Shown in pieces: positions 18,782-57,803 of a stretch of DNA of 64,000 nucleotides. Location of the stretch: positions 171,291 through 235,290 of the forward strand of contig DASZUS010000045.1 of NCBI GenBank assembly GCA_035547515.1, in the 5' to 3' direction. The number at the start of each line of letters is the position of its first letter. Within the stretch, counting starts at the first letter, position 1. This stretch comes from Mycobacteriales bacterium (lineage in GTDB: Bacteria > Actinomycetota > Actinomycetes > JAFAQI01). The notes under the pieces were generated by a model. The model had not been told where the DNA came from and did no database searches. It saw only the letters and a list, made by a program, of their open reading frames with translations. The position numbers and the translations under genes are program-made.

Positions 18782-19927
18782 ATGCCGCTGCAGGCGGGCG
18801 TAGTGAAGGAAGCCGCGCCCGGCGAACGCAGAGTGGCTCTCACCCCGGACGCGGTACGCCGTCTCGCAGGCTCAGGCGTGGAGGTCCTCGTCGAGTCGGG
18901 CGCGGGAGACGGCGCGTGGTTCGACGACCAGCAGTACGCCGAGGCGGGCGCAACGGTGCTCGACGCGGCCGCCCTTCGCCGGCAAGCCGATGTCCTGCTT
19001 TGCGTCGATGCGCCGGACCTCTCGACGATCCCCGACGGCAAGGCGGTCATCGGCCTGCTCGCACCGTTGCTCCGCGCCCAATCCATGGCCGACCTCGCAG
19101 CGCGCGGCGTGACCGCGGTGAGCCTCGACGGGCTGCCCCGCACACTGACTCGCGCGCAGGGCATGGACGCGCTGACGTCCCAAACCAACATCGCCGGCTA
19201 CAAGGCGGTCCTGGTCGCGGCTGAGCACTTCGACCGCTTCTTCCCGCTTCTGATCACCGCAGCCGGCACCTCGAAACCGGCCGAGGTGCTCGTGCTCGGG
19301 GCCGGCGTCGCGGGCCTGTCGGCGATCGGCACCGCGCGCCGGCTCGGCGCGGTCGTCCGCGGTTACGACGTACGTCCGGCGAGCAACGAGGAGATCCGAT
19401 CGCTCGGGGCGCAGCCGATCGCGCTGACCTCGGTCGCACAAGGCGCTGGAGACGGCGGGTACGCGAGAGCACTGACCGACGAGGAGCAGCGCGCCCAGCA
19501 GGCCGAGCTGGCGGGCCACATCGCCAAGCACGACGTCGTCATCACCACCGCGCACGTGCCCGGACGGCGACCGCCGTTGATGGTCACCGCGGGCGCGATC
19601 GCCGCGATGCGCCGAGGCAGCGTGATTGTCGACATGGGCGCCTCGCCACTCGGCGGCAACGTCGAAGGGTCGGCACCGGGCGAGGTCATCGTGACCGGCA
19701 ACGGAGTGACCATCGTCGGGGCCAGTGACCTGCCCTCGCGGATGGCGAGCGCGGCGAGTGCGGCGTACGCCCGCAACATCAGCGCGCTGCTGGTGCACCT
19801 CGTATCCGACGGCGCGCTCACGATCGACCTGACCGATGAGATCTCTGCCGGCGTTGTGATCACCCATGACGGCAGGGTCGTCCATCCCGCCACGGCCGCG
19901 TTGCTCACCCAGGAAGGCCAGCCATGA
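18782..19927 (+). CDS. pntAA: NAD(P) transhydrogenase subunit alpha part 1
   Basis: Alanine dehydrogenase/PNT N- and C-domains with GAGVAGL NAD-binding motif. Confidence 0.9.
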   Translation: MPLQAGVVKEAAPGERRVALTPDAVRRLAGSGVEVLVESGAGDGAWFDDQQYAEAGATVLDAAALRRQADVLLCVDAPDLSTIPDGKAVIGLLAPLLRAQSMADLAARGVTAVSLDGLPRTLTRAQGMDALTSQTNIAGYKAVLVAAEHFDRFFPLLITAAGTSKPAEVLVLGAGVAGLSAIGTARRLGAVVRGYDVRPASNEEIRSLGAQPIALTSVAQGAGDGGYARALTDEEQRAQQAELAGHIAKHDVVITTAHVPGRRPPLMVTAGAIAAMRRGSVIVDMGASPLGGNVEGSAPGEVIVTGNGVTIVGASDLPSRMASAASAAYARNISALLVHLVSDGALTIDLTDEISAGVVITHDGRVVHPATAALLTQEGQP

Positions 19928-20241
19928 CCGGATCGTTCGTCGGCGACATGACGATCTTCGTGCTCGCCTTGCTGGTCGGGTTCGAGGTCATCAGCAAGGT
20001 CCCCGCAACGCTCCACACGCCGCTGATGTCGGGCGCCAACTCGATCCACGGCGTGGTGCTGGTCGGCGTGGTGATCCTGTCCGGGGAGACCCATGGCGCC
20101 CTCGGCTACATCTTGCTGTTCGTCGCCGGCGCGTTCGCCGCGGCGAACGTAATCGGGGGTTACGTGGTGACCGACCGCATGCTGCAGATGTTCAGACGCC
20201 GCCCGGCGGCCGCACCACCGGAGCAGGGCGGCGCGCCGTGA
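19924..20241 (+). CDS. pntAB: NAD(P) transhydrogenase subunit alpha part 2 (membrane)
   Basis: 105-aa membrane protein overlapping the pntAA stop. Confidence 0.88.
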   Translation: MTGSFVGDMTIFVLALLVGFEVISKVPATLHTPLMSGANSIHGVVLVGVVILSGETHGALGYILLFVAGAFAAANVIGGYVVTDRMLQMFRRRPAAAPPEQGGAP

Positions 20242-21647
20242 GCCACTGGGAAACCGCGATCCGCTTCGCCTCGCTGTTCGGCGCAGTGTGCTTCGTGGTC
20301 GGCCTGCACCTGATGAACTCCCCCGCCACCGCGCGGCGCGGCAACCAGGTCTCGGCGTTCGGGATGGTCGTCGCTGTTGCCGCGGTGCTGCTCAACGTCG
20401 GGCACGGCGACAACGGCGCCGTGATGGACGCGAGCCGTTGGCTGGTCCTGCTCGCGGGGGTGACGGTCGGCGGCGCCTGGGGCTGGTACGCCGCGCGGAC
20501 CCTGCAGATGACCTCGATGCCGCAGCTGGTGTCGATCTTCAATGCGGTCGGTGGAGGTGCGGCCGCGCTGATCGCGATCGCGGAGTACGACATCCACACC
20601 CACCCCTCCGGAGGCACCGCGACGGCAACTGTGCTCGACGTGGTGATCGGGGGTGTGACGTTCACCGGCTCGGTGCTCGCGGCGCTGAAGCTGCAAGGTC
20701 ACCTGTCCCAGCCGGTGTCGATCCCCGCTGCCCGGCCGGCATCCGCCGGCTTCGCGGCGCTCGCCGTAGCGGGAGCCGGCTGGGTGATCGCGGGCGCCGA
20801 CAGCAAGGGCGTGCTTCTCGGAGTGGTCATTGCGGCGATGGCCTTCGGCGTACTCATGGTGCTGCCGATCGGCGGCGCCGACATGCCGGTCGTCATCTCG
20901 CTGCTCAACGCCTTCACCGGGACGGCGGTCGCGATGGCCGGCTTCGTCCTGTCGAACGCGACCCTGACGATAGCCGGTGCGCTGGTCGGGGCCTCCGGCT
21001 CGATCCTGACCAAGCTGATGGCCGACGCCATGAACCGATCGGTCGTCAACATCATCGCGGGGGGCTTCGGGACCGGCGACGGCGCGGTGAGCGGCCCTGG
21101 CGGTGCGGGCGGCCCGGTCAGGTCGATCGCGGTCGACGACGCCGCGCTGCAGCTCGCCTACGCCAGCAAGGTGATCATCGTGCCGGGCTACGGCCTCGCT
21201 GCCGCACAGGCACAGCACGAGTGCCGCGAGCTGGCCGAGGTGCTCGAGTCACACGGTGTGGAGGTGAGCTACGCGATCCATCCCGTCGCGGGGCGGATGC
21301 CCGGCCACATGAACGTGCTGCTCGCCGAGGCCAACGTGCCCTACGACCAGCTCAAAGAGATGGAGGAGATCAACTCCGAGTTCGACCGCACCGACGTCGC
21401 CCTCGTGATCGGCGCCAACGACGTGACGAACCCCGCCGCCCGGCGGCCCGGCAACGCGGTGTCGGGGATGCCGATCCTCGACGTCGACCACGCGAAGTCG
21501 ATCATCGTGATCAAGCGATCGATGGCCTCCGGGTACGCCGGCATCGACAACGAGCTCTACACCGACCCGAAGACCTCGATGTTCTTCGCCGACGCCAAGC
21601 AGGGTCTCGCCTCGCTGGTGGCAGCCGCCAAAACCCTCGTCGCCTAG
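20238..21647 (+). CDS. pntB: NAD(P) transhydrogenase subunit beta
   Basis: GTG start overlapping the pntAB stop; membrane domain plus C-terminal NADP(H)-binding domain. Confidence 0.9.
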   Translation: MSHWETAIRFASLFGAVCFVVGLHLMNSPATARRGNQVSAFGMVVAVAAVLLNVGHGDNGAVMDASRWLVLLAGVTVGGAWGWYAARTLQMTSMPQLVSIFNAVGGGAAALIAIAEYDIHTHPSGGTATATVLDVVIGGVTFTGSVLAALKLQGHLSQPVSIPAARPASAGFAALAVAGAGWVIAGADSKGVLLGVVIAAMAFGVLMVLPIGGADMPVVISLLNAFTGTAVAMAGFVLSNATLTIAGALVGASGSILTKLMADAMNRSVVNIIAGGFGTGDGAVSGPGGAGGPVRSIAVDDAALQLAYASKVIIVPGYGLAAAQAQHECRELAEVLESHGVEVSYAIHPVAGRMPGHMNVLLAEANVPYDQLKEMEEINSEFDRTDVALVIGANDVTNPAARRPGNAVSGMPILDVDHAKSIIVIKRSMASGYAGIDNELYTDPKTSMFFADAKQGLASLVAAAKTLVA

Positions 21648-22843
21648 AACCGTACGGGCATCGACTCGTAGCCCGAGACGAAGTTCGCCGGACGGTACGG
21701 CGGCTCCGCTTCGTCCACCAGCTCGATGTCGGGCAGGCGGCGCAGCAACGTCTCGAAGAAGCACACGAGCTCGAGACGCGCCAGGTTGTTGCCCAGGCAG
21801 AAGTGCGTCCCGATGCCGAAGGCAACGTGCTCGTTCGGCGTACGGCTGATGTCGAACCGGAACGGGTCGGTGAACACCGAAGCATCGCGGTTCGCCGACG
21901 GATAGAGCAGCAGCAGCTTGTCACCTGCCGGCAGGTGCTGGCCACCCAGCTCGGTGTCGGCGACGACGGTCCGCGCCATGTTCTTGATCGGGCTGACCCA
22001 ACGCAGCATCTCCTCGACCGCGGTAGGGATCCGGCTCGGGTCCTCGATCAGCACCTGCTTGGCGGCAGGGTCGCGCAGCAGCTGGTAGAGGCCGCCGCTG
22101 ATCACGTGGCGAGTGGTCTCGTCGCCGCCGATCAGGATGAGCAGCGCGTCGTGGATCACGTCCTCCAGGTTGACGTCCTCCCCGTCGCTGCCGCCCTGCA
22201 CCAGCAGGCTGACCAGGTCGTCCCCCGGCGTACGGCGACGGTCTTCGATCGCCGCCATCGCGAACTCCCGGAAGCCGTTGTACGCCTCCGCGGCCGGAAT
22301 CATCGCCTCCGGATCACCGGTGCCGACAAGCGCCCGCAGCATGTCGTCGGACCACTTCAGCAACGATGCTCGATCGGATTCGGGGAAGCCGAGCATGTCC
22401 CCGATCACGTGCATCGGCAGCCACGCCGCGAGGTCGCGGACCGCATCACACTCACCGCGCTCGCAGACCTCGTCGATGATCCGGTTGCACCAGGCGTTGA
22501 TCGGGTCAACCGAGTCCGCGAGCCGCCGCGGCGTGAAGCCGCGGTTGACCATCTTGCGACGCCTTTTGTGCTCCGCGCCGTCCTGGTCGATCATCATCGG
22601 GATCGCGGCCTCGTCGGGCCGGATGCCCCCGCCGTTGCAGAACAGCTCAGGATGCAGCGACACGTACTTGACATCCGCGTGGCTGGCGACGCCCCACACC
22701 CGACCGTCCCAGTAGACCGGCGCGTTCTCGCGCAACCAGGTGAGCTCGTCGTGCGGGTTCCGGCCCCAGAACTCACCGCTGACGAGATCGATGGCCGGAT
22801 TTACCGGGTGATCGCCCTTGGCGACCGTCTGCCCGGAGGTCAT
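21644..22843 (-). CDS. Cytochrome P450, CYP142-like (sterol side-chain 26-monooxygenase family)
   Basis: Heme loop FGIGTHFCLGNNLARLEL, I-helix LILIGGDETTRH; close to my recollection of Mtb CYP142 (GGIRPD, IPMMID, RPANFVSG-ESMPV). Confidence 0.9.
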   Translation of the reverse strand: MTSGQTVAKGDHPVNPAIDLVSGEFWGRNPHDELTWLRENAPVYWDGRVWGVASHADVKYVSLHPELFCNGGGIRPDEAAIPMMIDQDGAEHKRRRKMVNRGFTPRRLADSVDPINAWCNRIIDEVCERGECDAVRDLAAWLPMHVIGDMLGFPESDRASLLKWSDDMLRALVGTGDPEAMIPAAEAYNGFREFAMAAIEDRRRTPGDDLVSLLVQGGSDGEDVNLEDVIHDALLILIGGDETTRHVISGGLYQLLRDPAAKQVLIEDPSRIPTAVEEMLRWVSPIKNMARTVVADTELGGQHLPAGDKLLLLYPSANRDASVFTDPFRFDISRTPNEHVAFGIGTHFCLGNNLARLELVCFFETLLRRLPDIELVDEAEPPYRPANFVSGYESMPVRF

Positions 22844-24351
22844 CAGGCGCCCTTCGCCAAGAAGCGACCGTCACAGCGATAGCCGGATTTCGGGTCGTCC
22901 ACGCGCTGGAATCCTCCGTTCTCGAGCTCCCACAGGATGTAACAGTGCGGCCCGCCCTTGGCGGCCGGGCTGACCGGGGCGATCAGCCCGTTGGCATCGA
23001 AGTCCTTGATCCGTCGCAGTGACGACATCAGGGTCTTGCGGTCGAGCGTTCCGTGGACGCTCTCGGCGGCCTGCTGGAAGAGCCGGTCGTCTGCCCAGGC
23101 GTACATCGCATAGAGGTTGATCGGCTGACCCGGATAGGTCCGTTCGAACCAGTCCTGGAAGGTCTTCACCTCGGGGATTCTCGTCGCCTCGTCCTTGTTG
23201 AAGAACAACGCGTAGGAGTTCCAGCCCAGGATGCCGTCGAGCTGCGAGGCCGGCCCGCTGTAGTCGGCCAGAAAGGCCTGGTCGTAGGCGATCGGGATGA
23301 TGTTGACCAAGCTCGACGGGCAGCCGGCCTGATGCTCGTTCTGGACCATCGTCGCGGCGTTCGCCGCGGTCTCGGTGAGCTCGAAGAAGACCTGGATGTG
23401 CTCCTGCTGGCACAGCTTGACGAAGTCGTTCTGGAAGTTGCTGTTCGTGGGCTGCTCGAGGATGCTGTCGACGAAGTGCCAGCCCTCGGCTTCCGCCGAG
23501 CGAACCTGGTTCTGCTGCTCTTCCACCGCCGAGGGGATGTCCTCGACGATGGTGCCGACGTGGTCGAGCTTCGAGCCCAGCTTCTGCTTGTAGTACTGGA
23601 ACATCCCGGTCCCGTAGCCGTTGCCCCCCGCGGTGACGTCGAAATGGTTGGCCGGGATGTACGCCGATGGATCGAGCGCGACATGGATGTCGGCGATGCC
23701 AGGGTTCGCCTTCACGATGGAGGCGCCGCAGCCGTCGTACAACGCGAACGTGCCCGACAGCGCGAAGGTCTTGCCGGCGAGGCTCTGAGTGGCGTTCTCG
23801 TCCTGCGTGCAGTTTGTCCCGTCGTCGGCGATGTCCACCTTGACCTGCCGCCCGCAGATCCCGCCAGAGGTGCTGTTGACGTAGTTGGCGAAGGCCTCGC
23901 CACCCTGTTCCGCCCCTTGGAAGAGTCCCGAGACCGGCCCGGTGAGCGTCACGACCTCGCCGAGTGCCAGCGTCGACGCGGTCAGGCCCACATCCGTGCC
24001 CCCCGAGCAGTCCGGGCCGGAGCCGGTGGTCGGAGCTGCGCTCGCCGCGGCGCTCCTGACGCTGCCCGGTCCGGGCGCGGCCGCCGACGGTACGCCGGAG
24101 CCGGAGCCGACCGGCGGGAGCACCGTGCCGCCGGACGTGACGGGGTTCGGTGCCGCCGCCGTCGGCTCAGCCGCTTGCGGAGCAGCCACTGCGCCGACCC
24201 GCTGGCTGAGTGCGGCGCGCTCGGCCTGGCTGCGCACGTCACCCGGCAACCGGGCGCCGCAAGCCGTCGACGCCAGGGCGAGGGCCGTGGCAGCGGCGAT
24301 CAGCAGACCGCCCGGCCGGCGACTCCCCGGAGTCACGACGTGCCGCGTCAT
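22843..24351 (-). CDS. ABC-type substrate-binding lipoprotein (type I periplasmic binding protein, Leu/Ile/Val-like) with long Ala/Pro-rich linker; no cognate permease or ATPase nearby
   Basis: ATG at 24351 preceded by GGAGG; lipobox LASTAC; about 100-aa low-complexity linker then a PBP1-type domain. Confidence 0.75.
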   Translation of the reverse strand: MTRHVVTPGSRRPGGLLIAAATALALASTACGARLPGDVRSQAERAALSQRVGAVAAPQAAEPTAAAPNPVTSGGTVLPPVGSGSGVPSAAAPGPGSVRSAAASAAPTTGSGPDCSGGTDVGLTASTLALGEVVTLTGPVSGLFQGAEQGGEAFANYVNSTSGGICGRQVKVDIADDGTNCTQDENATQSLAGKTFALSGTFALYDGCGASIVKANPGIADIHVALDPSAYIPANHFDVTAGGNGYGTGMFQYYKQKLGSKLDHVGTIVEDIPSAVEEQQNQVRSAEAEGWHFVDSILEQPTNSNFQNDFVKLCQQEHIQVFFELTETAANAATMVQNEHQAGCPSSLVNIIPIAYDQAFLADYSGPASQLDGILGWNSYALFFNKDEATRIPEVKTFQDWFERTYPGQPINLYAMYAWADDRLFQQAAESVHGTLDRKTLMSSLRRIKDFDANGLIAPVSPAAKGGPHCYILWELENGGFQRVDDPKSGYRCDGRFLAKGA

Positions 24352-24767
24352 GACGAGCTGCCTCCCGGGCCCGGAAAAGCCTGCTTGGCACCCTTGCCAC
24401 GGTGCGCACCGAGGCGCTCTTCGACGATCCGGTTGAGCGACGAGCCGCGCGGCCAGCCGATGTAGTGGGTCAGGAAAAGGACGACCTCTCGCAGCTCGTC
24501 GGCGGTCATCTCCTCGTTGGACAAGATCGCGTCGAGCTGGATCGGCAGGACCGACCACTCCGCTGATGCCGCGATGACCCCGAGCAGCAACATCCGCCGG
24601 TCCCGCATCGACAGGCCCTCGCGCGACCAGATCTCGCCGAACAGGTGGTCCACCGTGGTCGCGAAGAAGTCGCCCCGCACCTCCGGCACCTCCCCCCAGG
24701 CATAGACCTGCCCCATCAGCGCCTTGCCGCGCTCGTGGCGCTCGGCCTGCGCGTCCTGGTCGCTCAC
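24348..24767 (-). CDS. Carboxymuconolactone decarboxylase family protein
   Basis: 139 aa with AhpD-like fold signature; 4-nt overlap with the downstream gene. Confidence 0.75.
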   Translation of the reverse strand: MSDQDAQAERHERGKALMGQVYAWGEVPEVRGDFFATTVDHLFGEIWSREGLSMRDRRMLLLGVIAASAEWSVLPIQLDAILSNEEMTADELREVVLFLTHYIGWPRGSSLNRIVEERLGAHRGKGAKQAFPGPGGSSS

Positions 24768-25657
24768 GCGCCGTCCTCGTGGGGCACCCGCAGCGCCGAG
24801 GCAAGCGACGCCAGCCCGAGCTCGCCGAACGGCAGGTCCACCCCGAGCGCGGCGCCAAGGTCGAGCGCGTGCCGAAGGTCCTTCTCGCCGAGCTCGCGAG
24901 TGTGCTCGAAGATCGGCCGAAGCGGGTTATCGCTGCCGTACGGGTCCTGGCTCGGCGAGATCATGACGACTGCCGGGCCCCCGATCACGGCATCGCTGTG
25001 CCGGATTGCCGCCGCGAGCTTGAGTACGTCGACGCCCGCCGCCTGCGCCAGCCGCGCGACCTCTCCGGTGGCGGCATACCCGATGAACTGCAAGAGGTTC
25101 CGCGCGACCTTGGCACGGATCCCGGAGCCCGACGGCCCGAAGTAGAGCAGCAGCGACGCCCAGCGCTCGAACACCGGCTTCGCCTGCTCGTACGCGCCGC
25201 GGTCTCCGCCGACCATCGCTACGAGCTGGCCGTTCGCCGCGCCAGCCGGCCCGCCGGTGAGTGCGACGTCGAGCACCTCGATCCCGCGTGGTGCCGCAAG
25301 TGCCGCCAGCTCCGGCGCGGTGTCGACGTCGATCGTGGAGTGGACCGCGATCACCGTCCCGGGCTTCGCGCACTCGACCAGCTCACCGATGACGTCTCGT
25401 ACCTGCCCGTCCGTCAGCACCACGACGGAGATCACGCTCGCCGTCGACGCGAGATCCGCGAGGTCCGCGGCGCCTCGCGCGCCGGCCGCGGAGAGCCGAC
25501 CGACAGGGGTCGGATTGATGTCGTAGACGGTGAGCCCGCCCGGCCACTCCATGAGCCGCGCTGCGAGTGCCGCCCCCATGTTTCCCAGGCCCACCACGCC
25601 GACACCGACCGAGGCCGGCTCCGCCATCCCGGTCTCAGTCACGGGATCGGCGGCCAC
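24764..25657 (-). CDS. NAD(P)-dependent oxidoreductase (3-hydroxyisobutyrate dehydrogenase-like)
   Basis: Rossmann motif GVVGLGNMG; 6-phosphogluconate-DH-like NAD-binding domain; start may be 25627. Confidence 0.8.
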   Translation of the reverse strand: MAADPVTETGMAEPASVGVGVVGLGNMGAALAARLMEWPGGLTVYDINPTPVGRLSAAGARGAADLADLASTASVISVVVLTDGQVRDVIGELVECAKPGTVIAVHSTIDVDTAPELAALAAPRGIEVLDVALTGGPAGAANGQLVAMVGGDRGAYEQAKPVFERWASLLLYFGPSGSGIRAKVARNLLQFIGYAATGEVARLAQAAGVDVLKLAAAIRHSDAVIGGPAVVMISPSQDPYGSDNPLRPIFEHTRELGEKDLRHALDLGAALGVDLPFGELGLASLASALRVPHEDGA

Positions 25658-26193
25658 AGCGGAGCCGGCAGGTCCGCTCGTCGGTAGTGGCCCGGCAGCA
25701 GCTCGCCGCTGGCCGCGCGCTCCATGCGGCGGCGCATGCCGTCGGAGAGCACGCCGGCGCTGATCATCTCGAAGAACAACGATCCGGCGTTCATGTGGTC
25801 GAAGAAGTCACGCTGCCAGAGCCAGCCCCCCGGCGAGTACCCGAACCAGCTCGCGCCGAACCCGGCCACCTCGTAGGGCGAGCCGTCGGGACGCGTCACG
25901 TCCGCCACCTGGCGCCAGAACCCGATGATCATGCCCGCACGGTCGTCGATCAGCGTCGCCTGGTACGGGTAGCTCCACCCCTCGAGCCCCTCCATCTCCA
26001 GTCCTAGGGCGAGCCTGCGGATGTCGTCGCGGCCGACTGCCATGAACTCGTCGTCGGCTCCGCAGTTCCACCCGTACGTCGCATCGGGGGCGAAGAACTC
26101 CGCAAGGTCCGACCAGTCGCGCTTTGCCTCGCAGGCCTTGTTGGCGTCCAGCCAGCGCTGCCAGAACGCTTCCATCTCGTCGCGGTCGGGCAT
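25639..26193 (-). CDS. NTF2-like/SnoaL-like domain protein
   Basis: 184 aa; ATG at 26193 overlaps the ferredoxin stop (ATGA); fold assignment tentative. Confidence 0.5.
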   Translation of the reverse strand: MPDRDEMEAFWQRWLDANKACEAKRDWSDLAEFFAPDATYGWNCGADDEFMAVGRDDIRRLALGLEMEGLEGWSYPYQATLIDDRAGMIIGFWRQVADVTRPDGSPYEVAGFGASWFGYSPGGWLWQRDFFDHMNAGSLFFEMISAGVLSDGMRRRMERAASGELLPGHYRRADLPAPLWPPIP

Positions 26194-26390
26194 CAGGCAT
26201 CTCCCTCGATCGTGAGCGCTCTGGTCGGGCAGTACTTCACGGCAAGGCGCACGGCCGCTTCGTGCTCGTCGGGTACGGCGTCGGGAAGCACCTCGACCTG
26301 GTCGGCGCGACCGACCTTGAAGACCGCAGGCGCCTCGACCTCGCACATCGCGTGGCCCTGGCACAGCCCGTAGTCGACCCGCACCCTCAT
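26193..26390 (-). CDS. Ferredoxin (3Fe-4S type), P450 redox partner
   Basis: 65 aa; motif YGLCQGHAMCE...CP; ATGA overlap with the CYP51 stop, as in the mycobacterial cyp51-fdx pair. Confidence 0.8.
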   Translation of the reverse strand: MRVRVDYGLCQGHAMCEVEAPAVFKVGRADQVEVLPDAVPDEHEAAVRLAVKYCPTRALTIEGDA

Positions 26391-27742
26391 CGGCCCGACC
26401 TCGGCCGCACATGCACTTCGCACGGCTGCTCGAGCTGGACCACCATCTTCGAGTGGTCATTGCGGTAGGAGTCAGCGGGCTGCGCCATCTCGAACGCGTA
26501 GTCGCGAAGCAGCACCGAGAAGACCGCCTTGAGCTGCATCATCGCGAAGGCTGCGCCGACACATCGATGCCGGCCGCCCCCGAACGGGATCCAGGTCCAG
26601 GGGTTGACGTCGTCCTCGCGGCGCGGATCGAGGTAGCGGGAAGGGTCGAAGACGTCGGCATCGGGAAAGTCCGGGGTGAGGCGGTTGGAGATCGCCGGGC
26701 TCGCCGCGACAAGATCGCCCTTGCGGATCGCGTACCCGCCCACTTCCAGATCCTCTGTTGCCACGCGTAGCAAGAGGATCAGCGGCGGGTGCAGTCGCAG
26801 GGCTTCCTTGATCGCCGACTCCAACCGGGGAATCTCGCGCAACGCCTGGAAGCTGACCTCCGAGCCGTCGGCATACAGCGCGTCCAGCTCGGTGACGACG
26901 GCGGTCAGCTCCTCGGGATGGCGCAGCAGCTCGATCAGCGTCCACGCCGCCGTACCCGAGGTCGTGTGGTGCCCGGCGAACATCAGCGAGATGAACATGC
27001 CCGTGATCTCGTCGGCCGTGAACCGCGGCTGGTCCCCGACCGTCATCGACATCAAAACGTCGAGCAGGTCCTTGTCACCGACGACCTGTCCGGACGTCCG
27101 CGCCGCCATGATGTCCACCACGAGCTCGACGAGCGCCGCCCGCGCCGCATCGCGGCGGCGGAAGCTCTCGATCGGCGCGTAGGGGTCGACGTAGGCCAAC
27201 GCGTCGGTACCGCGCTCGAGATCGTGGTAGTAGCTCGCGAACCGGCTGTCGAGCTGGTCCCGGAACTTCTTGCCGATGAGGCAGGCCGACGAGGTGTAGA
27301 TCGTCAGCTCGGCGAAGAAGTCGAGCAGGTCGATCGCCTGCTCACCGGTCCACCCGGCGACCGCCCGCTCGACCTCAGCCGCGATCACCTCGGCGTGGCC
27401 CTTCATCTGCGGGCCGCGCAGCGACGAGTTCTTGAGCATCTCCGCGCGGCGCTCGGGCGGTGCGTCGAAGACGACGCCCTGGCCGAAGATCGGCGTCATG
27501 AAGGGGTACGCCGCGCCCTGGTCGAGCAGCTCGTCCGGGGCCCGGAAGTACCACTCGTTGACCTCCCGGCCGCAGACCAGCACGACGTCGCGGCCGGCCA
27601 GCTCGAAGACGCCGACGTCGCCACACTCGTCGTGGACCCTCCGCATCAGCCCGATCGGGTCACGGCGCAGCTCTTCGAGATGCCCGTGCTCGTGCTCGCC
27701 GCCCGACACCCGCGGCGGCGCGGGCCCTGCAGCCACCGTCAT
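26387..27742 (-). CDS. cyp51: Sterol 14-alpha demethylase CYP51
   Basis: 451 aa; near-colinear similarity to my recollection of Mtb CYP51 (PRVSGG-EHGHLEE, YPFMTPIFG, FGGGRHRCVGAAFA). Confidence 0.92.
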   Translation of the reverse strand: MTVAAGPAPPRVSGGEHEHGHLEELRRDPIGLMRRVHDECGDVGVFELAGRDVVLVCGREVNEWYFRAPDELLDQGAAYPFMTPIFGQGVVFDAPPERRAEMLKNSSLRGPQMKGHAEVIAAEVERAVAGWTGEQAIDLLDFFAELTIYTSSACLIGKKFRDQLDSRFASYYHDLERGTDALAYVDPYAPIESFRRRDAARAALVELVVDIMAARTSGQVVGDKDLLDVLMSMTVGDQPRFTADEITGMFISLMFAGHHTTSGTAAWTLIELLRHPEELTAVVTELDALYADGSEVSFQALREIPRLESAIKEALRLHPPLILLLRVATEDLEVGGYAIRKGDLVAASPAISNRLTPDFPDADVFDPSRYLDPRREDDVNPWTWIPFGGGRHRCVGAAFAMMQLKAVFSVLLRDYAFEMAQPADSYRNDHSKMVVQLEQPCEVHVRPRSGR

Positions 27743-27764
27743 GGCGACTCCTCGCTCTCGATGT

Positions 27765-28970
27765 TCATCGAAGCCTCACCGACGTCGGCAGATGCGCAAA
27801 GCCCCGGACGTTGACCGAGTGCACCCGACGGGCATTCGCCTCGTCGACGTCGTACGAGCCGACCCGTGACACGAGCTGCTCGAGCACGACCTTGGCTTCG
27901 AGCCGCGCCAGTGACGCGCCGAGGCAGAAATGCCGCCCGGACCCGAAACTGAGCAGCTCGGAGGTGTCGCGGTCGAGGTCGTAACTGTCCGGGTCCGCGA
28001 ACACACTGTCGTCCCGGTTCGCCGACCCGATGAGCAGAAGAACCCGCGACGCGGCGGGGATCACCACACCGCGCACCGCCACCTCGGTCGTCGTGGTGCG
28101 CGCCAGCATCTGCGTCGAGTTGTCGTAGCGGAGGGTTTCCTCGACCCATGCGGCGACTGCGGACCGGTTGCCGAGCGGCTTCGCCAGCTCGGCCGGGTTG
28201 CGCCACCCCCAGTACCAGCAGTGGCCGAGCAGCTTGGTGGTGGTCTCGTTGCCGGCGACAACCATGAGGAACAGAAACGCGCCGAGCTCGTCATCGGTGA
28301 GCCGCTCGCCGTCGAGCTCGACCTCGAGCAGCGCGGATGTGAGGTCGTCACGCGGATGCTTGCGACGCCCGGCGATCAGGTCGAGGTAGTAGACCGCGAG
28401 GTCGATCGAAGCGGCCGCCGCCGCCTGCGGCACATCGAACACACCGTCGTCCCGGTGCACCACGACGTCAGCCAGCCGTCGCAGCTCGGCGCGATCCGCT
28501 TCAGGCACGCCGAGCAGCTCCGAGACGACATCCATCGGCACCTTGCCAGCGACGTCGTCGATGAAGTCGAAGCTGCCCTGCTCGAGCGCAGGCGCGAGAT
28601 GGCCGTCGGTGATCGCCCGGACTCTCGGCTCCAGGTCCTGCACGCGGCGTGGCGTGAAGCCTTTCGAGACCAGCCGGCGCATCCGGCCGTGGCGCGGTTC
28701 GTCCATCGCGAGGAACGACATCACCCTCGCGGCCTGCGGCCCGGTCGCGGCGGGATCCAGCGACACCCCGTCGGCGCTGGAGTACCGCTGATCGTCGCGA
28801 AACGCGGCAACGACGTCGGCATGCCGCGACAGCGCGTAGAAGCCATGCTCGTCGTTGCGGTACACCGGCGCGTGAGCCCGCAGCGCGGCGTACGTCGGGT
28901 AGGGATCCTCGTGAATCGCGTAGTCGTACGGGTCGTACGCCGGCACCAGCTCGCCGAGGTCCGCGGTCAT
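27765..28970 (-). CDS. Cytochrome P450 (CYP123-like position downstream of TetR, upstream of cyp51)
   Basis: Heme loop FGSGRHFCLGASLARLE, I-helix VVAGNETT; gene order matches the mycobacterial cyp123-cyp51 operon. Confidence 0.88.
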   Translation of the reverse strand: MTADLGELVPAYDPYDYAIHEDPYPTYAALRAHAPVYRNDEHGFYALSRHADVVAAFRDDQRYSSADGVSLDPAATGPQAARVMSFLAMDEPRHGRMRRLVSKGFTPRRVQDLEPRVRAITDGHLAPALEQGSFDFIDDVAGKVPMDVVSELLGVPEADRAELRRLADVVVHRDDGVFDVPQAAAAASIDLAVYYLDLIAGRRKHPRDDLTSALLEVELDGERLTDDELGAFLFLMVVAGNETTTKLLGHCWYWGWRNPAELAKPLGNRSAVAAWVEETLRYDNSTQMLARTTTTEVAVRGVVIPAASRVLLLIGSANRDDSVFADPDSYDLDRDTSELLSFGSGRHFCLGASLARLEAKVVLEQLVSRVGSYDVDEANARRVHSVNVRGFAHLPTSVRLR

Positions 28971-29548
28971 CGACGCTCCGTCATCAGTGCCGTGGCATCC
29001 GCCATCAGCGTCGGCAGTGCGTCGTACGTCGTGTAACCCATGCCGGCCGAAAGCAACGCCCCGACGAAGGTGAAGGTGAGCACCAGTGCCACCCGCGGGT
29101 CAGCGTCCGAGCCGAGCGCATCCGCGATCCGCCTGCCGATCGCGGCACCGATGCGGTCCCGGATCACCTGCACGTCGGCGTCGTGGGCGAGCAGCGCGGT
29201 CGTGATGCCCGCCGCTAGCTCGGGTTCGTCAGCGACCAGCAACGCAACGGCCTGCATCGCGTCCTGGACCCGCGCGGCGCCGCGCTGTCGGCGGCTCGGC
29301 TTCGGGAGGTCGAGGGCGTCCAGGCGGCGCCAGAACACCTCGCTGAGCAAGTGCTCCTTGCTTGCGAAGTACGTGTACGCAGTCGCCGGCGACACCCCCG
29401 CGCGGCGTGCCACCGCGCGCACCGTGAGCCCGTCGTACCCGGTCTCGGCGACTTCATGGACCGCCGCGTCGACCAGGGCAGCGACCGTGTCAGCCGCGCG
29501 ACCGGCGAGCGCACGCCGAGGTACCTCGGCAGCGGCCGAACTGGACAT
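28967..29548 (-). CDS. TetR family transcriptional regulator
   Basis: HTH VRAVARRAGVSPATAYTYFASKEHLL; 4-nt overlap with the P450 start. Confidence 0.85.
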   Translation of the reverse strand: MSSSAAAEVPRRALAGRAADTVAALVDAAVHEVAETGYDGLTVRAVARRAGVSPATAYTYFASKEHLLSEVFWRRLDALDLPKPSRRQRGAARVQDAMQAVALLVADEPELAAGITTALLAHDADVQVIRDRIGAAIGRRIADALGSDADPRVALVLTFTFVGALLSAGMGYTTYDALPTLMADATALMTERR

Positions 29549-29567
29549 GTGTCCAGACAGTAGACCG

Positions 29568-30824
29568 TCAGAGCGAGGTTGGGAAGGCCCGTCCGAAGCG
29601 GAACCGGGCGCCGGTGCTGATCTTGGCGATGCCGAGCTCCGGTGCTTCGGCGAGCGGCTGCCGGTCCGGGTCTATCCGTACCTCGTAGGCATGCAGCTCG
29701 CCGTCCCGCGGTGGGACCCGGGTGAGCAGCGCGTGGGGGTCGAACGCCGCGACCACCTGCGCAAGGGAGGCATCCGTGTCGGCGCCGAGCCCGCTGAACC
29801 AGGTGTAGACGTCCCCCTCGTGTGCGGCAGGACCGTCGGCGAAGCTCAGCCGGACCACGCCATGCTCCACCGTTACGGCAGCCGCGACGTAGCGCCGCGG
29901 CGCGAACATCGGATGCAGCGAGAGCATGGTCGCGAGCCCTTCGATCGTCTGCGGGAGCGCGAGGGCGTCCTTCAGCCGTTGCGCGGTCAACCCGCACCAG
30001 CCGGTGACCAAACGCGGTCGGATGGCCAGCACGCGCTCGGCTCCGAGCCGGCGGTCGACACTGGTCAGCAGGGCACGCAGCAGCAGGTGGCTCTGCAGCG
30101 CGAACTCATCCAATGCGACCACGAGCGCCGGCCGGGAGAAGTCCTCGAGCCGGAGCTCGGGATCGAACCCGCCGCTGTAGTCGGCCCTGCCAGGCCCGTC
30201 AGGCGCGCCCGGGGTCATGACATCGAGCTGTGCCGCCAACGACTCCGCGACCTCGGCCTCCAGCTCGTGCGGCTTCACGATCGCCGCGTCCTCGGTGATG
30301 TCGATGCGCCAGTGGCAGTGCGGGACCCGGTCGGCCGGGGTACGCGGCGGCCGGTGCAACGGCCGGATCGCAGCGCGCGGATTGGTCGCCGCCGCCGTCG
30401 CGTCGAAGGTCGGGTCCTCGATCGTGTGGCACATGCCATGCACGAACTCGACACCCATCGGCTCGACGTCCATCAGCGCTCCGCAGTGCGCGAGCCAGAA
30501 CTCCGCGTGGGCGGCGTCGACGATCCGGAACCTGAAGTCCATGAACTCGTGAGGTGCGCCGATATCGAGCTGGAGGTTCTTGCAGATCGTCTCGACGCCG
30601 TCGCCCGGAAAGCGCAGCGCGCGTTGCATTCGGCGCGAGTAGATCGGGCTCGCCGCCATCCACTCGTCGATCGCGATCTGTTGCATCAGCTCGCGGTCGG
30701 CGGTCTCCATCACCAACGCCATGCCGACGCGGTCCTGCAGATGCCCGTGCAACAGCCATTCACGTCCCAGGACCGCGAGCGTCGCCTGGTCGAGATCGGT
30801 GAGGTACGGCGCCGCCCTGGTCAC
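29568..30824 (-). CDS. Conserved hypothetical protein (418 aa) heading the P450 operon
   Basis: Long ORF with balanced composition and good codon bias; no family recognised by eye. Confidence 0.55.
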   Translation of the reverse strand: MTRAAPYLTDLDQATLAVLGREWLLHGHLQDRVGMALVMETADRELMQQIAIDEWMAASPIYSRRMQRALRFPGDGVETICKNLQLDIGAPHEFMDFRFRIVDAAHAEFWLAHCGALMDVEPMGVEFVHGMCHTIEDPTFDATAAATNPRAAIRPLHRPPRTPADRVPHCHWRIDITEDAAIVKPHELEAEVAESLAAQLDVMTPGAPDGPGRADYSGGFDPELRLEDFSRPALVVALDEFALQSHLLLRALLTSVDRRLGAERVLAIRPRLVTGWCGLTAQRLKDALALPQTIEGLATMLSLHPMFAPRRYVAAAVTVEHGVVRLSFADGPAAHEGDVYTWFSGLGADTDASLAQVVAAFDPHALLTRVPPRDGELHAYEVRIDPDRQPLAEAPELGIAKISTGARFRFGRAFPTSL

Positions 30825-30847
30825 GGATCCGGGACGCTAGTGGCCAC

Positions 30848-32245
30848 TCACTCCGCGAGCAAGCCGAGTACGCCGATGCCGACCAACGCGAGCATCGCGG
30901 GCGCCAGGCCCGCCGCCGAGGTGAAGACGAGGACCGTGACCGCCGTGCCCGCAGCGGTGCCCAGCCCGCGGGTCATGTTGAGCAGCCCGGCGACCGCGCC
31001 CGTCGTACCGGGCGGCGCCGCGACCATCAGGCTTCGGTTGTTCGCCGGGGTGAAGGAGCCGATGCCGACCCCGATCACGCCGAGCAGCACCGCCAGTCCC
31101 CAGCCGGTGGGCCGAGCCGCGGCCAGCGCTGCGAGCCCGACCACGGCGACGAGCAGGCCGCCGCGGGCAACCCGGCCCGGCGCGCGGTCCGCCAGGCGTC
31201 CCGCGACCGGAGCCACGATGCCGATGCCGATCGGGAGGGCGGTCACAAGGAGCCCGACGTTCGCGGTGTCGAGGTGCTGCGTCCGCGTGAGGAACAGCGG
31301 CACCGCCACCAGAGCGCCGAAGAGCACGGCGTAGCCGCACAACGCAGCGAACAGCCCGCGCCGCAGCCCGGGCGCCTCGATCACCACGCGCTGCACCAGC
31401 GGTGCGGCGGACCGGCGCTGATGACGCATCGCGACCACGCCGAGCACCAGCGCAGCCAGTCCGGCAGCGAGCGCCGACCAGGCCTGACCGGACCGAGTCG
31501 CCAGCGACATCGCCAGAAGCGCCAGACCGACGACCGGGATGAGCAGCGCGATGCCGATCGGGTCGATCCGGCGCGCCGGTGCCAGGTCACGGCTGCGCGG
31601 AAGCAACACCGCCCCGGTGATAAGCCCGACGACGCCGGCCGGCACGTTCACCAGGAACAGCAACCGCCAGCCGCCGACCGCCAGCAGGAGCCCGCCAAGC
31701 GCCGGACCGGCTGCCAGGCCGATCGCTTGTGCCGCCGCCTGCATGCCGACCATCCGGCCCAGCCGGGAGCGCGGCGCGATCGCCGCGATCAGCGCGACGC
31801 TGTTCGCCTGCATGAGCGCGGCGCCGACGGCCTGTACGACGCGGAACCCGCAGAGCAGCCCGAGGTCGGGCGCGAACGCGCAAGCCGCGCTGCCCACCGA
31901 GAAGACCGCGAAACCGCCGATGTAGAGCGACTTGCGCCCGACGGTGTCCGCCCAGGTCCCGATCGGGACGACCAGTGCGACGAGGGTGAGCACGTAGGTC
32001 AGCGACACCCACTCGACGGCGGCCACGCCGGCGTGCAGATCGTGGGACATGCGGGGAAGCGCGACGCTGACGATGCTCGTGTCGAGCTGACCCATGAACG
32101 CGCCGATGCACACGGTCGCGACGGCGAGCATCGGGGCCGAGGACGAGGTCGCAATGCGCCGCGGCCGCGCCGGCTCGAGCAGCTGGAGCAGGCGGTAGCC
32201 GGGCACGCCAGGGGGCGGGCCGAGCTGGGCCGTCTGCTGCATCAC
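30848..32245 (-). CDS. MFS transporter (DHA2/EmrB-like)
   Basis: 465 aa, 14 TM; divergent from the MarR gene. Confidence 0.88.
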   Translation of the reverse strand: MMQQTAQLGPPPGVPGYRLLQLLEPARPRRIATSSSAPMLAVATVCIGAFMGQLDTSIVSVALPRMSHDLHAGVAAVEWVSLTYVLTLVALVVPIGTWADTVGRKSLYIGGFAVFSVGSAACAFAPDLGLLCGFRVVQAVGAALMQANSVALIAAIAPRSRLGRMVGMQAAAQAIGLAAGPALGGLLLAVGGWRLLFLVNVPAGVVGLITGAVLLPRSRDLAPARRIDPIGIALLIPVVGLALLAMSLATRSGQAWSALAAGLAALVLGVVAMRHQRRSAAPLVQRVVIEAPGLRRGLFAALCGYAVLFGALVAVPLFLTRTQHLDTANVGLLVTALPIGIGIVAPVAGRLADRAPGRVARGGLLVAVVGLAALAAARPTGWGLAVLLGVIGVGIGSFTPANNRSLMVAAPPGTTGAVAGLLNMTRGLGTAAGTAVTVLVFTSAAGLAPAMLALVGIGVLGLLAE

Positions 32246-32322: not shown

Positions 32323-32787
32323 GTGCCCGCGCCACGCCGGTCGACGCCGGCCGACCTCGACGCTCTCGCCGACGTGGTGACCCGGCTGCGCCGGGCGCTG
32401 CGGCGGGTGGTGCGCAGCGACGTGCCGTTCGAGGCCCTCCCGATGGCGCAGATCGAGGTGATGCAGCTGCTCGCGGAGCGCCCCGGCCTGCGGGCGAGCG
32501 AGGTCGGCGAGGCCCTCTTGCTCGCACCGACGACGGTGAGCACGCTGATCGGGAGCCTGCTGGCGCAGGATCTGATCGACCGCCAGCCGGACCCGGCGGA
32601 CCGGCGGGCCTGGCGCCTGCTGCTGACCGCCGAGGGCGAGGCGCGGCTGGCCGACTGGCAGCAGTCGAACCGCCGCGTCATGCGGTCTGCCGCCGCACAC
32701 CTCGGTGGCGAGGATCTCGCCGCGTTACGCGACGCACTACCCGCGCTGAGCAAGCTCGTCGCGCACCTCGATAGCAACCGGCCATGA
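32323..32787 (+). CDS. MarR family transcriptional regulator
   Basis: Winged-HTH core LRASEVGEALLLAPTTVSTLIGSLLAQDLIDR; stop overlaps the crcB start. Confidence 0.85.
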   Translation: MPAPRRSTPADLDALADVVTRLRRALRRVVRSDVPFEALPMAQIEVMQLLAERPGLRASEVGEALLLAPTTVSTLIGSLLAQDLIDRQPDPADRRAWRLLLTAEGEARLADWQQSNRRVMRSAAAHLGGEDLAALRDALPALSKLVAHLDSNRP

Positions 32788-45778: not shown

Positions 45779-47128
45779 CTAGCCGCGAACCGCCTCAGTC
45801 CACGCGAAGCTGTCGCGCCACGGCACGAAGCCGTAGTAGTCGGACGGGACCTGCACACCTGACACCACCTTGGTGGCGTGGCGCAGGCCCGGCGCGAGCA
45901 GCCACAGGGCATCACGGCGTACGACGAGCATCGCGCCGTCGGTCCCCCACATCGGCGCGGCCGCACCCCTGGCGGGACGCACCGCATGACGCAGCCCGGA
46001 GACCGACCGAACCTGCACGCCACCACTGGCCTGCACCCGGTCGACGTAGGACATGGCGTACCCGTCGCTGTCGTTGGTGGCCCGGTCCCGCACGAACGCC
46101 AGCTGGCCACTGTCGCTCCACGCGGGGTCGAAGCTCACCCGGCTCGCACCCTGCGCCAGCCTGTGGCACGACGACAGGCCGCAGACCACGAGGTGCTTGT
46201 GGCCGCCGGTGAGCTCGCGGCTGCCGCCTGCGACGAAGGCGACCTCATCGGTTGTCGGTGACGTCGCCAGCCACTGCGGGTACTGCAGCATCGACTTCGC
46301 CAGCAGCCGGCGATGACCGCTGGTGACCGAGACGTCGTAGAGCGGCAGCCCGTCAGCAGCCAGCGACGCCGATCCCTGGTAGTCCAACCAGGTGAGGATC
46401 CCGGAGCCGTCGGGCCACCAGCCGGCGACCTCGAACACGTTGCCCTCGGCAGTCGTGACCCGGTGGCGGGCGTCGGACGTTGCGCTGATCGTCACAAGCC
46501 GGCTGTGCCAGGCGCCGGGCTCGCCGGCGAACCCGTTGATGCTCGCCGCGATCCGGCTGCCGTCGGGCGACCACGCGAATCCCGAGATGATCCGGGCGGC
46601 TACCTTGCCGTCGAGCGAACCCCCGACGGGGTCCGCGACCGCGAGGACGTCCCGGTCGTTGTTCGGGCTCTTCGCGTGCAACGTGTAGCTGATCGCGAGG
46701 CGGTCGGCGGAGGGCGACCATGCAGTCATCACGTCGTACTCGTCGGTGCCTCTCGACAGGTTGTGGACCACCCTGCCCTCGGCGGTGAGGATCAGTATCT
46801 TGCTCGGCTCGTCGGCGTACGGATTGCTTTTGGGCGCCGGAGCGGTCACCACGACACTGAGCCACTTGCCGTCAGCCGACCACTCGGGGTCCCCAGCCTG
46901 CTGACCGAGCGGAACCCGACGGGTGCCGCTGACGGGGCCTCCAACCAGGAAGAGCTGGTGGTCGCGGATCACCGCAAGCTCGCCGTGCCCGCTCATCGTG
47001 GCCGCGCCCGACGTAGCAGAGCTCGCAACGGGCGACGCCGACGCCGATGCCGACCCCGGAGCCAGGGTCGCTACCGGCAGCGCGGTCAGGGCAAGGACGG
47101 CGGCGATCACAGGTTTCACGAGAATCAC
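45779..47128 (-). CDS. Secreted beta-propeller protein (TolB-like WD40 repeats)
   Basis: Signal peptide; repeated WSPDG/WSADG propeller-blade motifs. Confidence 0.6.
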   Translation of the reverse strand: MILVKPVIAAVLALTALPVATLAPGSASASASPVASSATSGAATMSGHGELAVIRDHQLFLVGGPVSGTRRVPLGQQAGDPEWSADGKWLSVVVTAPAPKSNPYADEPSKILILTAEGRVVHNLSRGTDEYDVMTAWSPSADRLAISYTLHAKSPNNDRDVLAVADPVGGSLDGKVAARIISGFAWSPDGSRIAASINGFAGEPGAWHSRLVTISATSDARHRVTTAEGNVFEVAGWWPDGSGILTWLDYQGSASLAADGLPLYDVSVTSGHRRLLAKSMLQYPQWLATSPTTDEVAFVAGGSRELTGGHKHLVVCGLSSCHRLAQGASRVSFDPAWSDSGQLAFVRDRATNDSDGYAMSYVDRVQASGGVQVRSVSGLRHAVRPARGAAAPMWGTDGAMLVVRRDALWLLAPGLRHATKVVSGVQVPSDYYGFVPWRDSFAWTEAVRG

Positions 47129-47178
47129 GACGCCCGACGCTAGCCCGAGGTTGTCCGGCCTCCGGATACCGTCTGCCG

Positions 47179-57724: not shown

Positions 57725-57763
57725 CCCGCCACCGTCGAGCCTCCGGCAGCTGCTGCCCACCCC

Positions 57764-57799: not shown

Positions 57800-57803
57800 C
57801 GCG

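Follow-up and report, generated by a model that had tools for sequence, protein, structure and literature searches.

Mycobacteria and their relatives make no sterols, and why they nevertheless keep a sterol 14-alpha-demethylase, CYP51, is an old question that has never been answered. A block of genes from an uncultured soil actinobacterium of the Mycobacteriales raises it again. The block lies in a 64-kb stretch of DNA of about 70% G+C (contig DASZUS010000045.1 of assembly GCA_035547515.1, hereafter the window), where ten minus-strand open reading frames (ORFs), here called g1 to g10 in reading order, span positions 21644-30824, each with a third-position G+C of 0.82-0.91 in its own frame. An earlier note, made from the letters alone, had taken these genes for a single ten-gene transcription unit in which unusual accessory genes were fused to a cyp51 core, and had suggested a sterol or terpenoid uptake-and-tailoring module outside any described pathway. 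Our analysis leads elsewhere. The block is a known cluster, that of hpoR and cyp51, in a rearranged and compacted form; the function of this cluster is still unsolved, and no new pathway need be invoked. The explanation that we favor as a whole, namely a compacted cyp51/hpoR cluster in which nine genes form an operon repressed by HpoR and serve the oxidation of sterols or steroids, has in our estimate a probability of roughly 0.6. The window does not tell us why CYP51 is retained, but it does show a pared-down form of the cluster.

A compacted cyp51/hpoR cluster

In Mycobacterium tuberculosis, Rv0762c, Rv0763c (a ferredoxin), cyp51, Rv0765c, cyp123, Rv0767c (a TetR-family regulator), aldA and Rv0769-Rv0771 are listed together as a co-regulated block, in which Rv0770 is a dehydrogenase/reductase and Rv0771 a possible 4-carboxymuconolactone decarboxylase (PMC10470581). 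In M. smegmatis, Ms5855-Ms5865 constitute the hpoR operon, whose regulator HpoR (Ms5860, the ortholog of Rv0767c) represses through a 12-bp motif, GGACANNTGTCC (PMC5909442). M. tuberculosis and BCG have retained both the operon and its motif (PMC5909442, PMC12980445). With this block and this operon already published, the proposal of an undescribed module cannot be upheld.

Read from g1, the ten genes of the window encode a 418-amino-acid conserved protein, a TetR-family repressor, a cytochrome P450 in the position of CYP123, CYP51, a small ferredoxin, an NTF2/SnoaL-fold protein, a reductase resembling beta-hydroxyacid dehydrogenases (HIBADH-like), a carboxymuconolactone decarboxylase (CMD) family protein, a substrate-binding lipoprotein and a P450 of the CYP142 family. 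Pfam and NCBIfam models, matches to structures in the PDB and synteny bear out these identities, including the cyp123-cyp51-ferredoxin core that the earlier note had recognized. We have very little doubt that this is the same cluster as that of hpoR and cyp51.

A CYP51 scan with one genome per species returned 319 relatives, from which the best 80 loci (69-87% identity) were taken with 10-kb flanks and searched by tblastn with the window proteins; the counts given below describe that sample only, and individual loci are cited by L numbers. CYP51, ferredoxin and the NTF2-like gene are contiguous in 75 of the 80 loci, and the longer string of TetR, P450, an optional short-chain dehydrogenase/reductase (SDR), CYP51, ferredoxin and NTF2 is found in 63. 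The accessory genes that had seemed unusual are ordinary members of the published regulon. Of the 80 loci, 78 have an NTF2-like gene, 69 a TetR gene, 57 a HIBADH-like gene, 56 a gene for the 418-residue protein and 52 a CMD gene. Some of these genes move within the cluster: g1-like genes within 10 kb stand directly after NTF2 in 33 loci and directly before TetR in 15, and the CMD gene belongs to a divergent HIBADH-CMD pair in 30 and lies on the same strand in 15. As for the additions, the singularity once ascribed to them holds for the binding lipoprotein, which alone among the block genes is confined to the clade of the window (9/80), and fails for the CYP142-type P450, whose orthologs (at least 50% identity) occur near CYP51 in 15 of the 80 loci, other lineages included.

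The closest relatives of the block are in uncultured Mycobacteriales or Frankiaceae metagenome-assembled genomes (MAGs; L001-L008). Six of these soil MAGs (L001, L003, L004, L005, L007 and L008) have the identical ten-gene order, with gaps mostly below 60 nt, while L002 has the same order minus g7 and L006 matches up to the end of its contig. The proteins of the six are 50-87% identical to those of the window, and the retention of order over this range of divergence shows that the arrangement is more than chance.

In 59 of 69 same-strand loci the g3-like P450 gene and CYP51 are some 780-890 nt apart, and this gap holds an SDR gene; in the window, g3 and g4 are separated by only 22 nt and no SDR intervenes. 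Neither AldA nor either of the two SDRs of the cluster has a tblastn match anywhere in the 64 kb. A group of Frankiales MAGs (L010, L012, L014-L016 and L019, with L014 incomplete at both ends) shows what the fuller form looks like, with a g1-like gene, TetR, P450, SDR, CYP51, ferredoxin, NTF2, AldA, a second SDR, HIBADH and CMD on one strand, followed further downstream by a CYP142-like gene in L012 and L015; L083 ends in a binding protein instead. Since these relatives have the entire set on one strand, including aldA and both SDR genes, the window is a reduced form and not the fusion that had been supposed: measured against the Frankiales, aldA and two SDR genes have been lost and the binding lipoprotein has been added.

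Other loci help to place this form. The Mycobacteriaceae locus L076 reads TetR, P450, SDR, CYP51, ferredoxin, NTF2 (181 amino acids), a zinc-dependent alcohol dehydrogenase and SnoaL, which is the order reported for M. tuberculosis from Rv0767c to Rv0760c. In L039 (Rhodococcus maanshanensis), a KstD-like flavoprotein, CMD, HIBADH, SDR and AldA occupy one strand, and TetR, P450, SDR, CYP51, ferredoxin, NTF2, a g1-like gene, FadD, CYP125 (E 1.2e-169 to 3ivy), two yrbE/MlaE genes and a Mce4-type gene the other. In L056 (R. opacus) a CYP125-family P450 lies directly upstream of TetR. A P450 of the CYP125 or CYP142 family is present within 10 kb of CYP51 in 47 of the 80 loci.

An HpoR-type repressor and its predicted operator

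The TetR-family repressor g2 (28967-29548, minus strand, as are all ten genes; TetR_N E 3.5e-16) is the positional ortholog of HpoR (Rv0767c / MSMEG_5860). It lies directly upstream of the CYP123-position P450, a placement shared by TetR in 63 of the 80 loci, and is 48% identical to the TetR of L076, the locus with the gene order of M. tuberculosis. An assignment to KstR was considered and rejected, the NCBIfam KstR model scoring 48.9 bits against a cutoff of 280.

The predicted operator of this repressor is a perfect 16-bp palindrome, CTGGACAcaTGTCCAG (29541-29556), that overlaps the ATG of g2. Its core is a perfect site, GGACAcaTGTCC, in agreement with the published 12-bp HpoR motif, and TGGACANNTGTCCA has its single perfect match in the 64-kb window within this palindrome, at 29542-29555. 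A relaxed search allowing up to three mismatches between 21.6 and 32.4 kb returned only noise besides the perfect site. Elsewhere in the window, a copy with two mismatches, TGGACATGTGCGCA, was seen at 2431-2444, overlapping the beginning of a DUF3099 gene (2438-2734); chance alone would yield roughly one match of this quality in the window.

This operator is by no means peculiar to the window. In the 1.48 Mb of the compared loci there are 37 exact sites for the 12-bp motif, compared with 1.3 expected from shuffles (maximum 4), and 149 sites with one mismatch, compared with 51. A box lies within 40 nt of the start in 48 of 72 TetR homologs. Other boxes stand upstream of AldA (at about -53), of g3-like P450, SDR and KstD-like genes, of yrbE in L029 and of g1-like genes in L009, L010, L015, L016 and L041, and the CYP142-like ortholog in L024 has a box of its own about 99 nt upstream.

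The operator is accompanied by a conserved promoter-like element. In the window, a -10-like hexamer, TACTGT (29557-29562, minus strand), abuts the operator 8 nt upstream of the TetR ATG, and a hexamer of the TANNNT type is found directly 5' of the operator at fixed spacing in 20 of 20 loci inspected, Rhodococcus and Mycobacteriaceae included. It reads TACTGT in the window and its close relatives and TAACGT, TAATGT or TAGCGT elsewhere, and many of the 20 loci also have a TTGC-type -35 element. In mycobacteria, a TANNNT -10 element ends about 6 nt before the transcription start site, and leaderless mRNAs are common. With this geometry, TACTGT would place the start of transcription inside the operator, some 2 nt ahead of the TetR ATG. 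Between g1 and g2, the 19-nt spacer consists almost wholly of the -10 element and half of the operator.

Upstream of the block, a second candidate hexamer of the same type, TAGCGT (30834-30839, minus strand), lies 9 nt before the GTG of g1. A TANNNT hexamer recurs 6-9 nt before the g1 start in L001 and L003-L007, despite differing surrounding sequence, and we regard TAGCGT as a candidate promoter of a leaderless g1 transcript. No HpoR operator was found at g1 in the lineage of the window.

The earlier description of ten tightly packed co-directional genes with ATGA and TGATG start-stop overlaps was accurate: all ORFs were found, the refined gaps from g1 to g10 are 19, -4, 22, -4, -1, -19, -4, -4 and -1 nt, and ATGA/GTGA and TGATG overlaps are present among the junctions. 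From g2 to g10, genes overlap at six of eight junctions and the other two gaps are at most 22 nt, which leaves no space for internal promoters. A scan for terminators within the block found none above chance and a scan for consensus sigma-70 promoters found no match, both scans being uninformative for so GC-rich an organism. Such packing is compatible with co-transcription, as had been proposed; the conserved operator and -10 element in the gap between g1 and g2, however, suggest a g1 unit plus a nine-gene operon and not one ten-gene transcript. We consider it likely that g2-g10 would constitute an operon under HpoR control, and g1 probably has its own promoter, with possible read-through into g2-g10.

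The three P450s and the ferredoxin

The assignment of g4 (26387-27742) to CYP51, of the CYP51B type of sterol 14-alpha-demethylases, is confirmed by full-length similarity to PDB entries 7tef (E 1.2e-206) and 1e9x, the M. tuberculosis enzyme (E 7.2e-204), and by the signature motifs YPFMTPIFGQGVVFD in the B'-helix, AGHHTT in helix I and FGGGRHRCVG in the heme-binding region. The enzyme is predicted to demethylate a sterol.

The last gene, g10 (21644-22843), is likewise confirmed as a CYP142-family P450; membership was taken to require, by the rule of P450 nomenclature, 40% identity or more to a named CYP142 and, in addition, closer grouping with CYP142 than with CYP125 or CYP124. The protein matches CYP142 structures (8a6w, 7p5t and 2xkr, E 1e-120 to 1e-122) at 406-410 bits, compared with 324 for a reconstructed CYP125 ancestor and 198 for CYP125A1. 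It is 51-52% identical to CYP142A1 (52% over 384 aligned residues of the M. tuberculosis enzyme) and 32-37% identical to CYP125s, and in a small neighbor-joining tree its clade is sister to CYP142A1 and apart from the CYP125-family enzymes. As its identity to CYP142A1 is below 55%, it falls outside subfamily A. Oxidation at C26 is a predicted role for this enzyme. The phylogenetic check that the earlier note had proposed thus places these P450s in sterol/steroid clades.

The third P450, g3 (27765-28970), belongs to the p450 family and has an intact heme motif, FGSGRHFCLG, but no close relative among solved structures in the PDB. We call it CYP123-type because it is 58% identical to the P450 of L076 that lies between the TetR and SDR genes and so occupies the cyp123 position.

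The presumed redox partner of these P450s is g5 (26193-26390; Fer4_15 E 6.7e-10), a small single-cluster ferredoxin with a CxxHxxC...CP motif, whose start overlaps the CYP51 stop (ATGA). A ferredoxin gene directly follows CYP51 in 75 of the 80 loci. No ferredoxin reductase is encoded in the 64-kb window.

Accessory proteins

The first gene, g1 (29568-30824), belongs to a large family (more than 4800 matches) that has no Pfam model. There was no Pfam or NCBIfam match to the protein, and relaxed Pfam thresholds applied to 36 family members gave only noise. Its predicted structural model comprises two tandem helix-and-sheet domains distantly similar to the V4R, Bet3 and H-NOX ligand-binding folds, from which we suggest a putative hydrophobic-ligand-binding fold. 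The invariant residues of the family include many histidines and cysteines, which suggests a metal site. A specific tie of g1 to cyp51 clusters was considered and rejected: homologs 55-57% identical to it (L085, L086 and L087) occur in loci without CYP51, beside genes for AMP-binding CoA ligases, acyl-CoA dehydrogenases, enoyl-CoA hydratases, a MaoC-like protein and a Rieske oxygenase, so that the family is not confined to these clusters. In Rhodococcus, FadD comes next after the g1-like gene; in 25 of the 80 loci a FadD homolog is found no more than 10 kb from CYP51.

The protein in the position of Rv0762c, g6 (25639-26193), has an NTF2/SnoaL fold (SnoaL_2 just under threshold) plus a C-terminal helical extension, and no sequence relative among solved structures. 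The HIBADH-like NAD(P) oxidoreductase g7 (24764-25657; NAD_binding_2 E 2.8e-35, and NAD_binding_11) occupies the Rv0770 position, has as its closest solved relative the "putative oxidoreductase" 3qha (E 5.9e-78) and is mostly paired with the CMD gene where it occurs. Its orthologs fall into two identity classes, 50-53% in L005-L008 and 70-72% in L001, L003 and L004, with none in L002, which suggests paralog replacement or loss at this position. The CMD-family protein g8 (24348-24767; CMD E 2.9e-7), in the Rv0771 position, is PcaC-like (PDB 4g9q, E 5e-18). It contains no cysteine at all and hence no CxxC motif of the AhpD-type members, so that a role as an AhpD-like antioxidant enzyme or alkylhydroperoxidase was rejected.

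The substrate-binding lipoprotein g9 (22843-24351) is of the Liv type (Peripla_BP_6 E 1.5e-24), with a signal peptide, a lipobox-like STAC and an 85-residue low-complexity linker rich in Ala, Gly, Pro and Ser. It has no sequence relative among solved structures, and its family is small (188 matches, mainly from Mycobacteriales MAGs and soil metagenomes). Within the cluster, a g9-like gene is present in 9 of the 80 loci, and also in L083. Complete operons of substrate-binding protein, permease and two ATPases (L081, 8001-12992; L082, 8001-12737) hold paralogs with 57% identity, one of which comes from the MAG that also has L008. The neighbors of these operons include genes for nitronate-monooxygenase-like, PNPOx-like and F420H2-quinone-reductase proteins, and in L081 also a P450 and a GGDEF-EAL protein. 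A regulon shared between g9 and this paralogous ABC transporter finds no support, as neither of the two operons has an HpoR box. The flanking genes of g9 itself are those of the CMD protein and the P450; permease and ATPase genes are lacking there, and the uptake role once proposed for the block is correspondingly weak. We conclude that g9 is an orphan binding protein and a lineage-specific addition.

A possible role in sterol or steroid oxidation and its alternatives

We propose the following scheme for the block. The HpoR-type g2 would repress its own near-leaderless promoter, which would drive nine coupled genes, g2-g10, while g1 just upstream, with its probable own promoter, may read through into the operon. 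The ferredoxin g5 would feed electrons to all three P450s, and these would oxidize an exogenous sterol or steroid-like lipid, with CYP51 acting at the 14-alpha-methyl group, the CYP123-type g3 on the ring system and the CYP142-type g10 at the terminus of the side chain. The NTF2-fold, reductase and CMD proteins would then process the oxidized intermediates.

As to the substrate, we hold the odds to be even that it is a sterol or a steroid-like lipid. In the published record, CYP123 of M. abscessus hydroxylates progesterone and 11-deoxycorticosterone in vitro (PMC12799577), and in Mycobacterium sp. VKM Ac-1817D a motif like that of Rv0767c stands before 14 operons, and phytosterol induces 12 of these more than 3-fold (PMC6593523). 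Together with the specificity of the CYP51 and CYP142 families and the recurrent attachment of CYP125, CYP142, FadD, KstD-like and mce4 genes, these results make the role plausible; FadD, KstD-like and mce4 genes accompany the CYP51 cluster in some loci, some of them with HpoR boxes.

Several points weigh against the explanation that we favor. We know of no actinobacterial CYP51 cluster for which a physiological substrate has been established, and a binding protein of the Liv type, whose ligands are typically small, would be surprising for a sterol, with g9 lacking an adjacent permease or ATPase and the paralogous ABC operon lacking an HpoR box. The 64-kb window contains no further steroid-catabolic genes (no kst, hsa, ksh, fadD or mce). 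No recognizable -35 element was found upstream of TACTGT in the window, the operon boundaries and the leaderless start are read from sequence alone, and the name CYP123 given to g3 expresses positional orthology and not comparison with a named CYP123. The 80-locus sample consists of the best CYP51 matches, with Rhodococcus over-represented. Finally, the sole experimental phenotype of a homologous operon is resistance to H2O2 under the control of cyclic di-GMP (c-di-GMP), not sterol metabolism (PMC5909442), and the M. tuberculosis block falls to 0.14-0.25-fold on treatment with p-hydroxybenzaldehyde (PMC10470581).

This last pair of results invites a different reading, which we think unlikely, that the block is a redox or oxidative-stress defense operon whose enzymes detoxify peroxide-derived or aldehyde products, sterols not being physiological substrates. 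High c-di-GMP relieves repression by HpoR in M. smegmatis, and de-repression of the homologous operon raises H2O2 resistance there (PMC5909442); the M. tuberculosis block, which changes with p-hydroxybenzaldehyde, contains an aldehyde dehydrogenase (PMC10470581). The H2O2 phenotype lacks a mechanism, however, and the window has shed aldA and both SDR genes and retains a CMD protein that, having no cysteine, cannot be an AhpD-type peroxidase, whereas the sterol-demethylase signatures of CYP51 are kept, at 69-87% identity across loci, and steroid-type P450s, FadD, KstD-like and mce4 genes recur near the cluster. Small aromatic or organic acids, for example derived from lignin, might instead be imported through the Liv-type binding protein, processed by the CMD and HIBADH-like proteins and demethylated or hydroxylated by the P450s. 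A Peripla_BP_6 protein and a PcaC-like CMD are indeed present, small ligands are usual for Liv-type binding proteins and p-hydroxybenzaldehyde, again, elicits a response in M. tuberculosis (PMC10470581), but genes for a ring-cleavage dioxygenase or the beta-ketoadipate pathway are absent from the neighborhood, and the binding protein, present in just 9 of the 80 loci, joined the cluster late. The families of g4 and g10, CYP51 and CYP142, are moreover known only as sterol or steroid oxidases, and we regard such a substrate as highly improbable.

We judge it quite improbable that the ten genes are several independent co-directional transcription units without a single functional module. Such a view could draw on the -10-like element and operator between g1 and g2 and the second -10-like element before g1, on lineages that split these genes over two divergent units or scatter them within 10 kb, and on the absence of g7 from L002 and of g10 from L083. 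It has to contend with the overlaps and the gaps too short for a promoter throughout g2-g10, with a single operator and no terminator above chance in the block, with the order and packing kept in six MAGs and with the recurrence of block members beside CYP51 in 52-78 of the 80 loci. A biosynthetic cluster tailoring an endogenous terpenoid or sterol-like lipid would account for three P450s, a dedicated ferredoxin and an NTF2/SnoaL fold of a kind common in natural-product cyclases and isomerases. Yet neither the window nor the annotated loci related to it contain a gene for a terpene synthase, a squalene or oxidosqualene cyclase, a polyketide synthase or a nonribosomal peptide synthetase, and the neighbors in other genera are those of catabolism and uptake (FadD, CYP125, mce4 and KstD-like genes); this origin strikes us as very remote.

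A bolder version of the sterol or steroid reading, which we offer only as a tentative and rather doubtful extension, is that the cyp51/hpoR cluster is an entry module by which soil actinobacteria would use 14-methylated, and possibly 4-methylated, sterols of fungi and plants. CYP51 would take off the 14-alpha-methyl group, other ring substituents would fall to the CYP123-type P450 together with the dehydrogenase, CMD and NTF2-fold enzymes, and the CYP142- or CYP125-type P450 would start the degradation of the side chain; the g1 family and the orphan lipoprotein may then be previously unrecognized sterol- or lipid-binding accessory proteins. If true, this would explain why CYP51 is retained in bacteria that make no sterols.

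The stripped-down, one-strand cluster sheds an aldehyde dehydrogenase and two SDRs and keeps three P450s, a ferredoxin, the NTF2-fold protein, the reductase and the CMD protein, and thereby defines a minimal conserved gene set and candidates for biochemistry in cultivable relatives. The main new point concerns regulation: well outside the mycobacteria, too, the HpoR operator known from the literature and the geometry of its promoter have been conserved. Steroid side-chain P450s of the CYP125 or CYP142 family have been attached to the cluster repeatedly, and in some lineages the HpoR operator marks the additions. A large unannotated family, that of g1, travels with the cluster, and we flag g1 and the orphan lipoprotein as candidates for testing.

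Genes around the block

A gene for a major facilitator superfamily (MFS) transporter (30848-32245, minus strand; MFS_1 E 1.3e-46), which the earlier note did not mention, lies co-directionally upstream of g1 and ends 23 nt before it, with a MarR gene (32323-32787, plus strand; MarR E 3.8e-11) divergent from it. The distance from the MFS stop to the g1 start is 12-61 nt in L001-L007, and in L011 a TetR gene directly follows the MFS gene. The MFS gene could belong to the unit as an eleventh member with a role in transport, or its place could be merely conserved synteny. On the other side, pntAB, for an NAD(P) transhydrogenase (18782-21647), converges on g10, the stops of pntB and g10 overlapping by 4 nt; this neighborhood is kept in L001, L002, L004, L005 and L008. 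The rest of the window is housekeeping in character (groEL, citrate synthase, otsA/otsB, gdh, transporters and regulators), and amid these genes are one for a YaaA peroxide-stress protein (47047-47958) and one resembling an AbiEi antitoxin (56819-57934). Across the compared loci, a gene for an F420H2-dependent quinone reductase is found within 10 kb of CYP51 in 20 of 80, L024, L025, L052 and L056 among them.

Comparison with known systems

With the hpoR operon of mycobacteria, the window shares an HpoR-type TetR with a GGACANNTGTCC operator at its start, a P450 in the CYP123 position, CYP51, the ferredoxin, an Rv0762c-type NTF2-fold protein, an Rv0770-type reductase and an Rv0771-type CMD protein. 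Of the string cyp123-SDR-cyp51-ferredoxin-Rv0762c it has the P450, CYP51, ferredoxin and NTF2 genes so ordered, without the SDR (Rv0765c), and of the unit aldA-SDR(Rv0769)-Rv0770-Rv0771 it has counterparts of the last two, g7 and g8, without aldA and the SDR. The mycobacterial cluster is laid out as two divergent units, whereas that of the window is all on one strand, and the upstream gene for the 418-residue protein with its putative V4R-like fold, the orphan binding lipoprotein and the CYP142-family P450 of the window were not seen in mycobacterial loci.

The co-directional clusters of Frankiales and Mycobacteriales (those listed above, together with L083) are nearer in form, sharing the order g1-like, TetR, P450, CYP51, ferredoxin, NTF2, HIBADH and CMD. 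These clusters keep the SDR, AldA and second SDR that the lineage of the window, with L002-L008, has deleted, and that lineage has together the binding protein and the CYP142-like gene that occur separately in these clusters, the former in L083 and the latter in L012 and L015. The Rhodococcus clusters (L039, L056) share a core of TetR, P450, SDR, CYP51, ferredoxin, NTF2 and a g1-like gene, the HpoR boxes and an attached P450 of the steroid side-chain type. They differ in placing the g1-like gene after NTF2 and not before TetR, in the family of the attached P450 (CYP125, whereas that of the window is CYP142), in having FadD, KstD-like and yrbE/mce4 genes where the window has the binding lipoprotein, and in the divergent orientation of the AldA-SDR-HIBADH-CMD unit. 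With the cholesterol catabolic regulon (KstR/KstR2, CYP125/CYP142 and Mce4) the window has in common the CYP142 family, whose members oxidize C26 of cholesterol or cholestenone; its regulator is not KstR, its operator is different and kst, hsa, ksh, fadD and mce belong to that regulon and not to this stretch of DNA.

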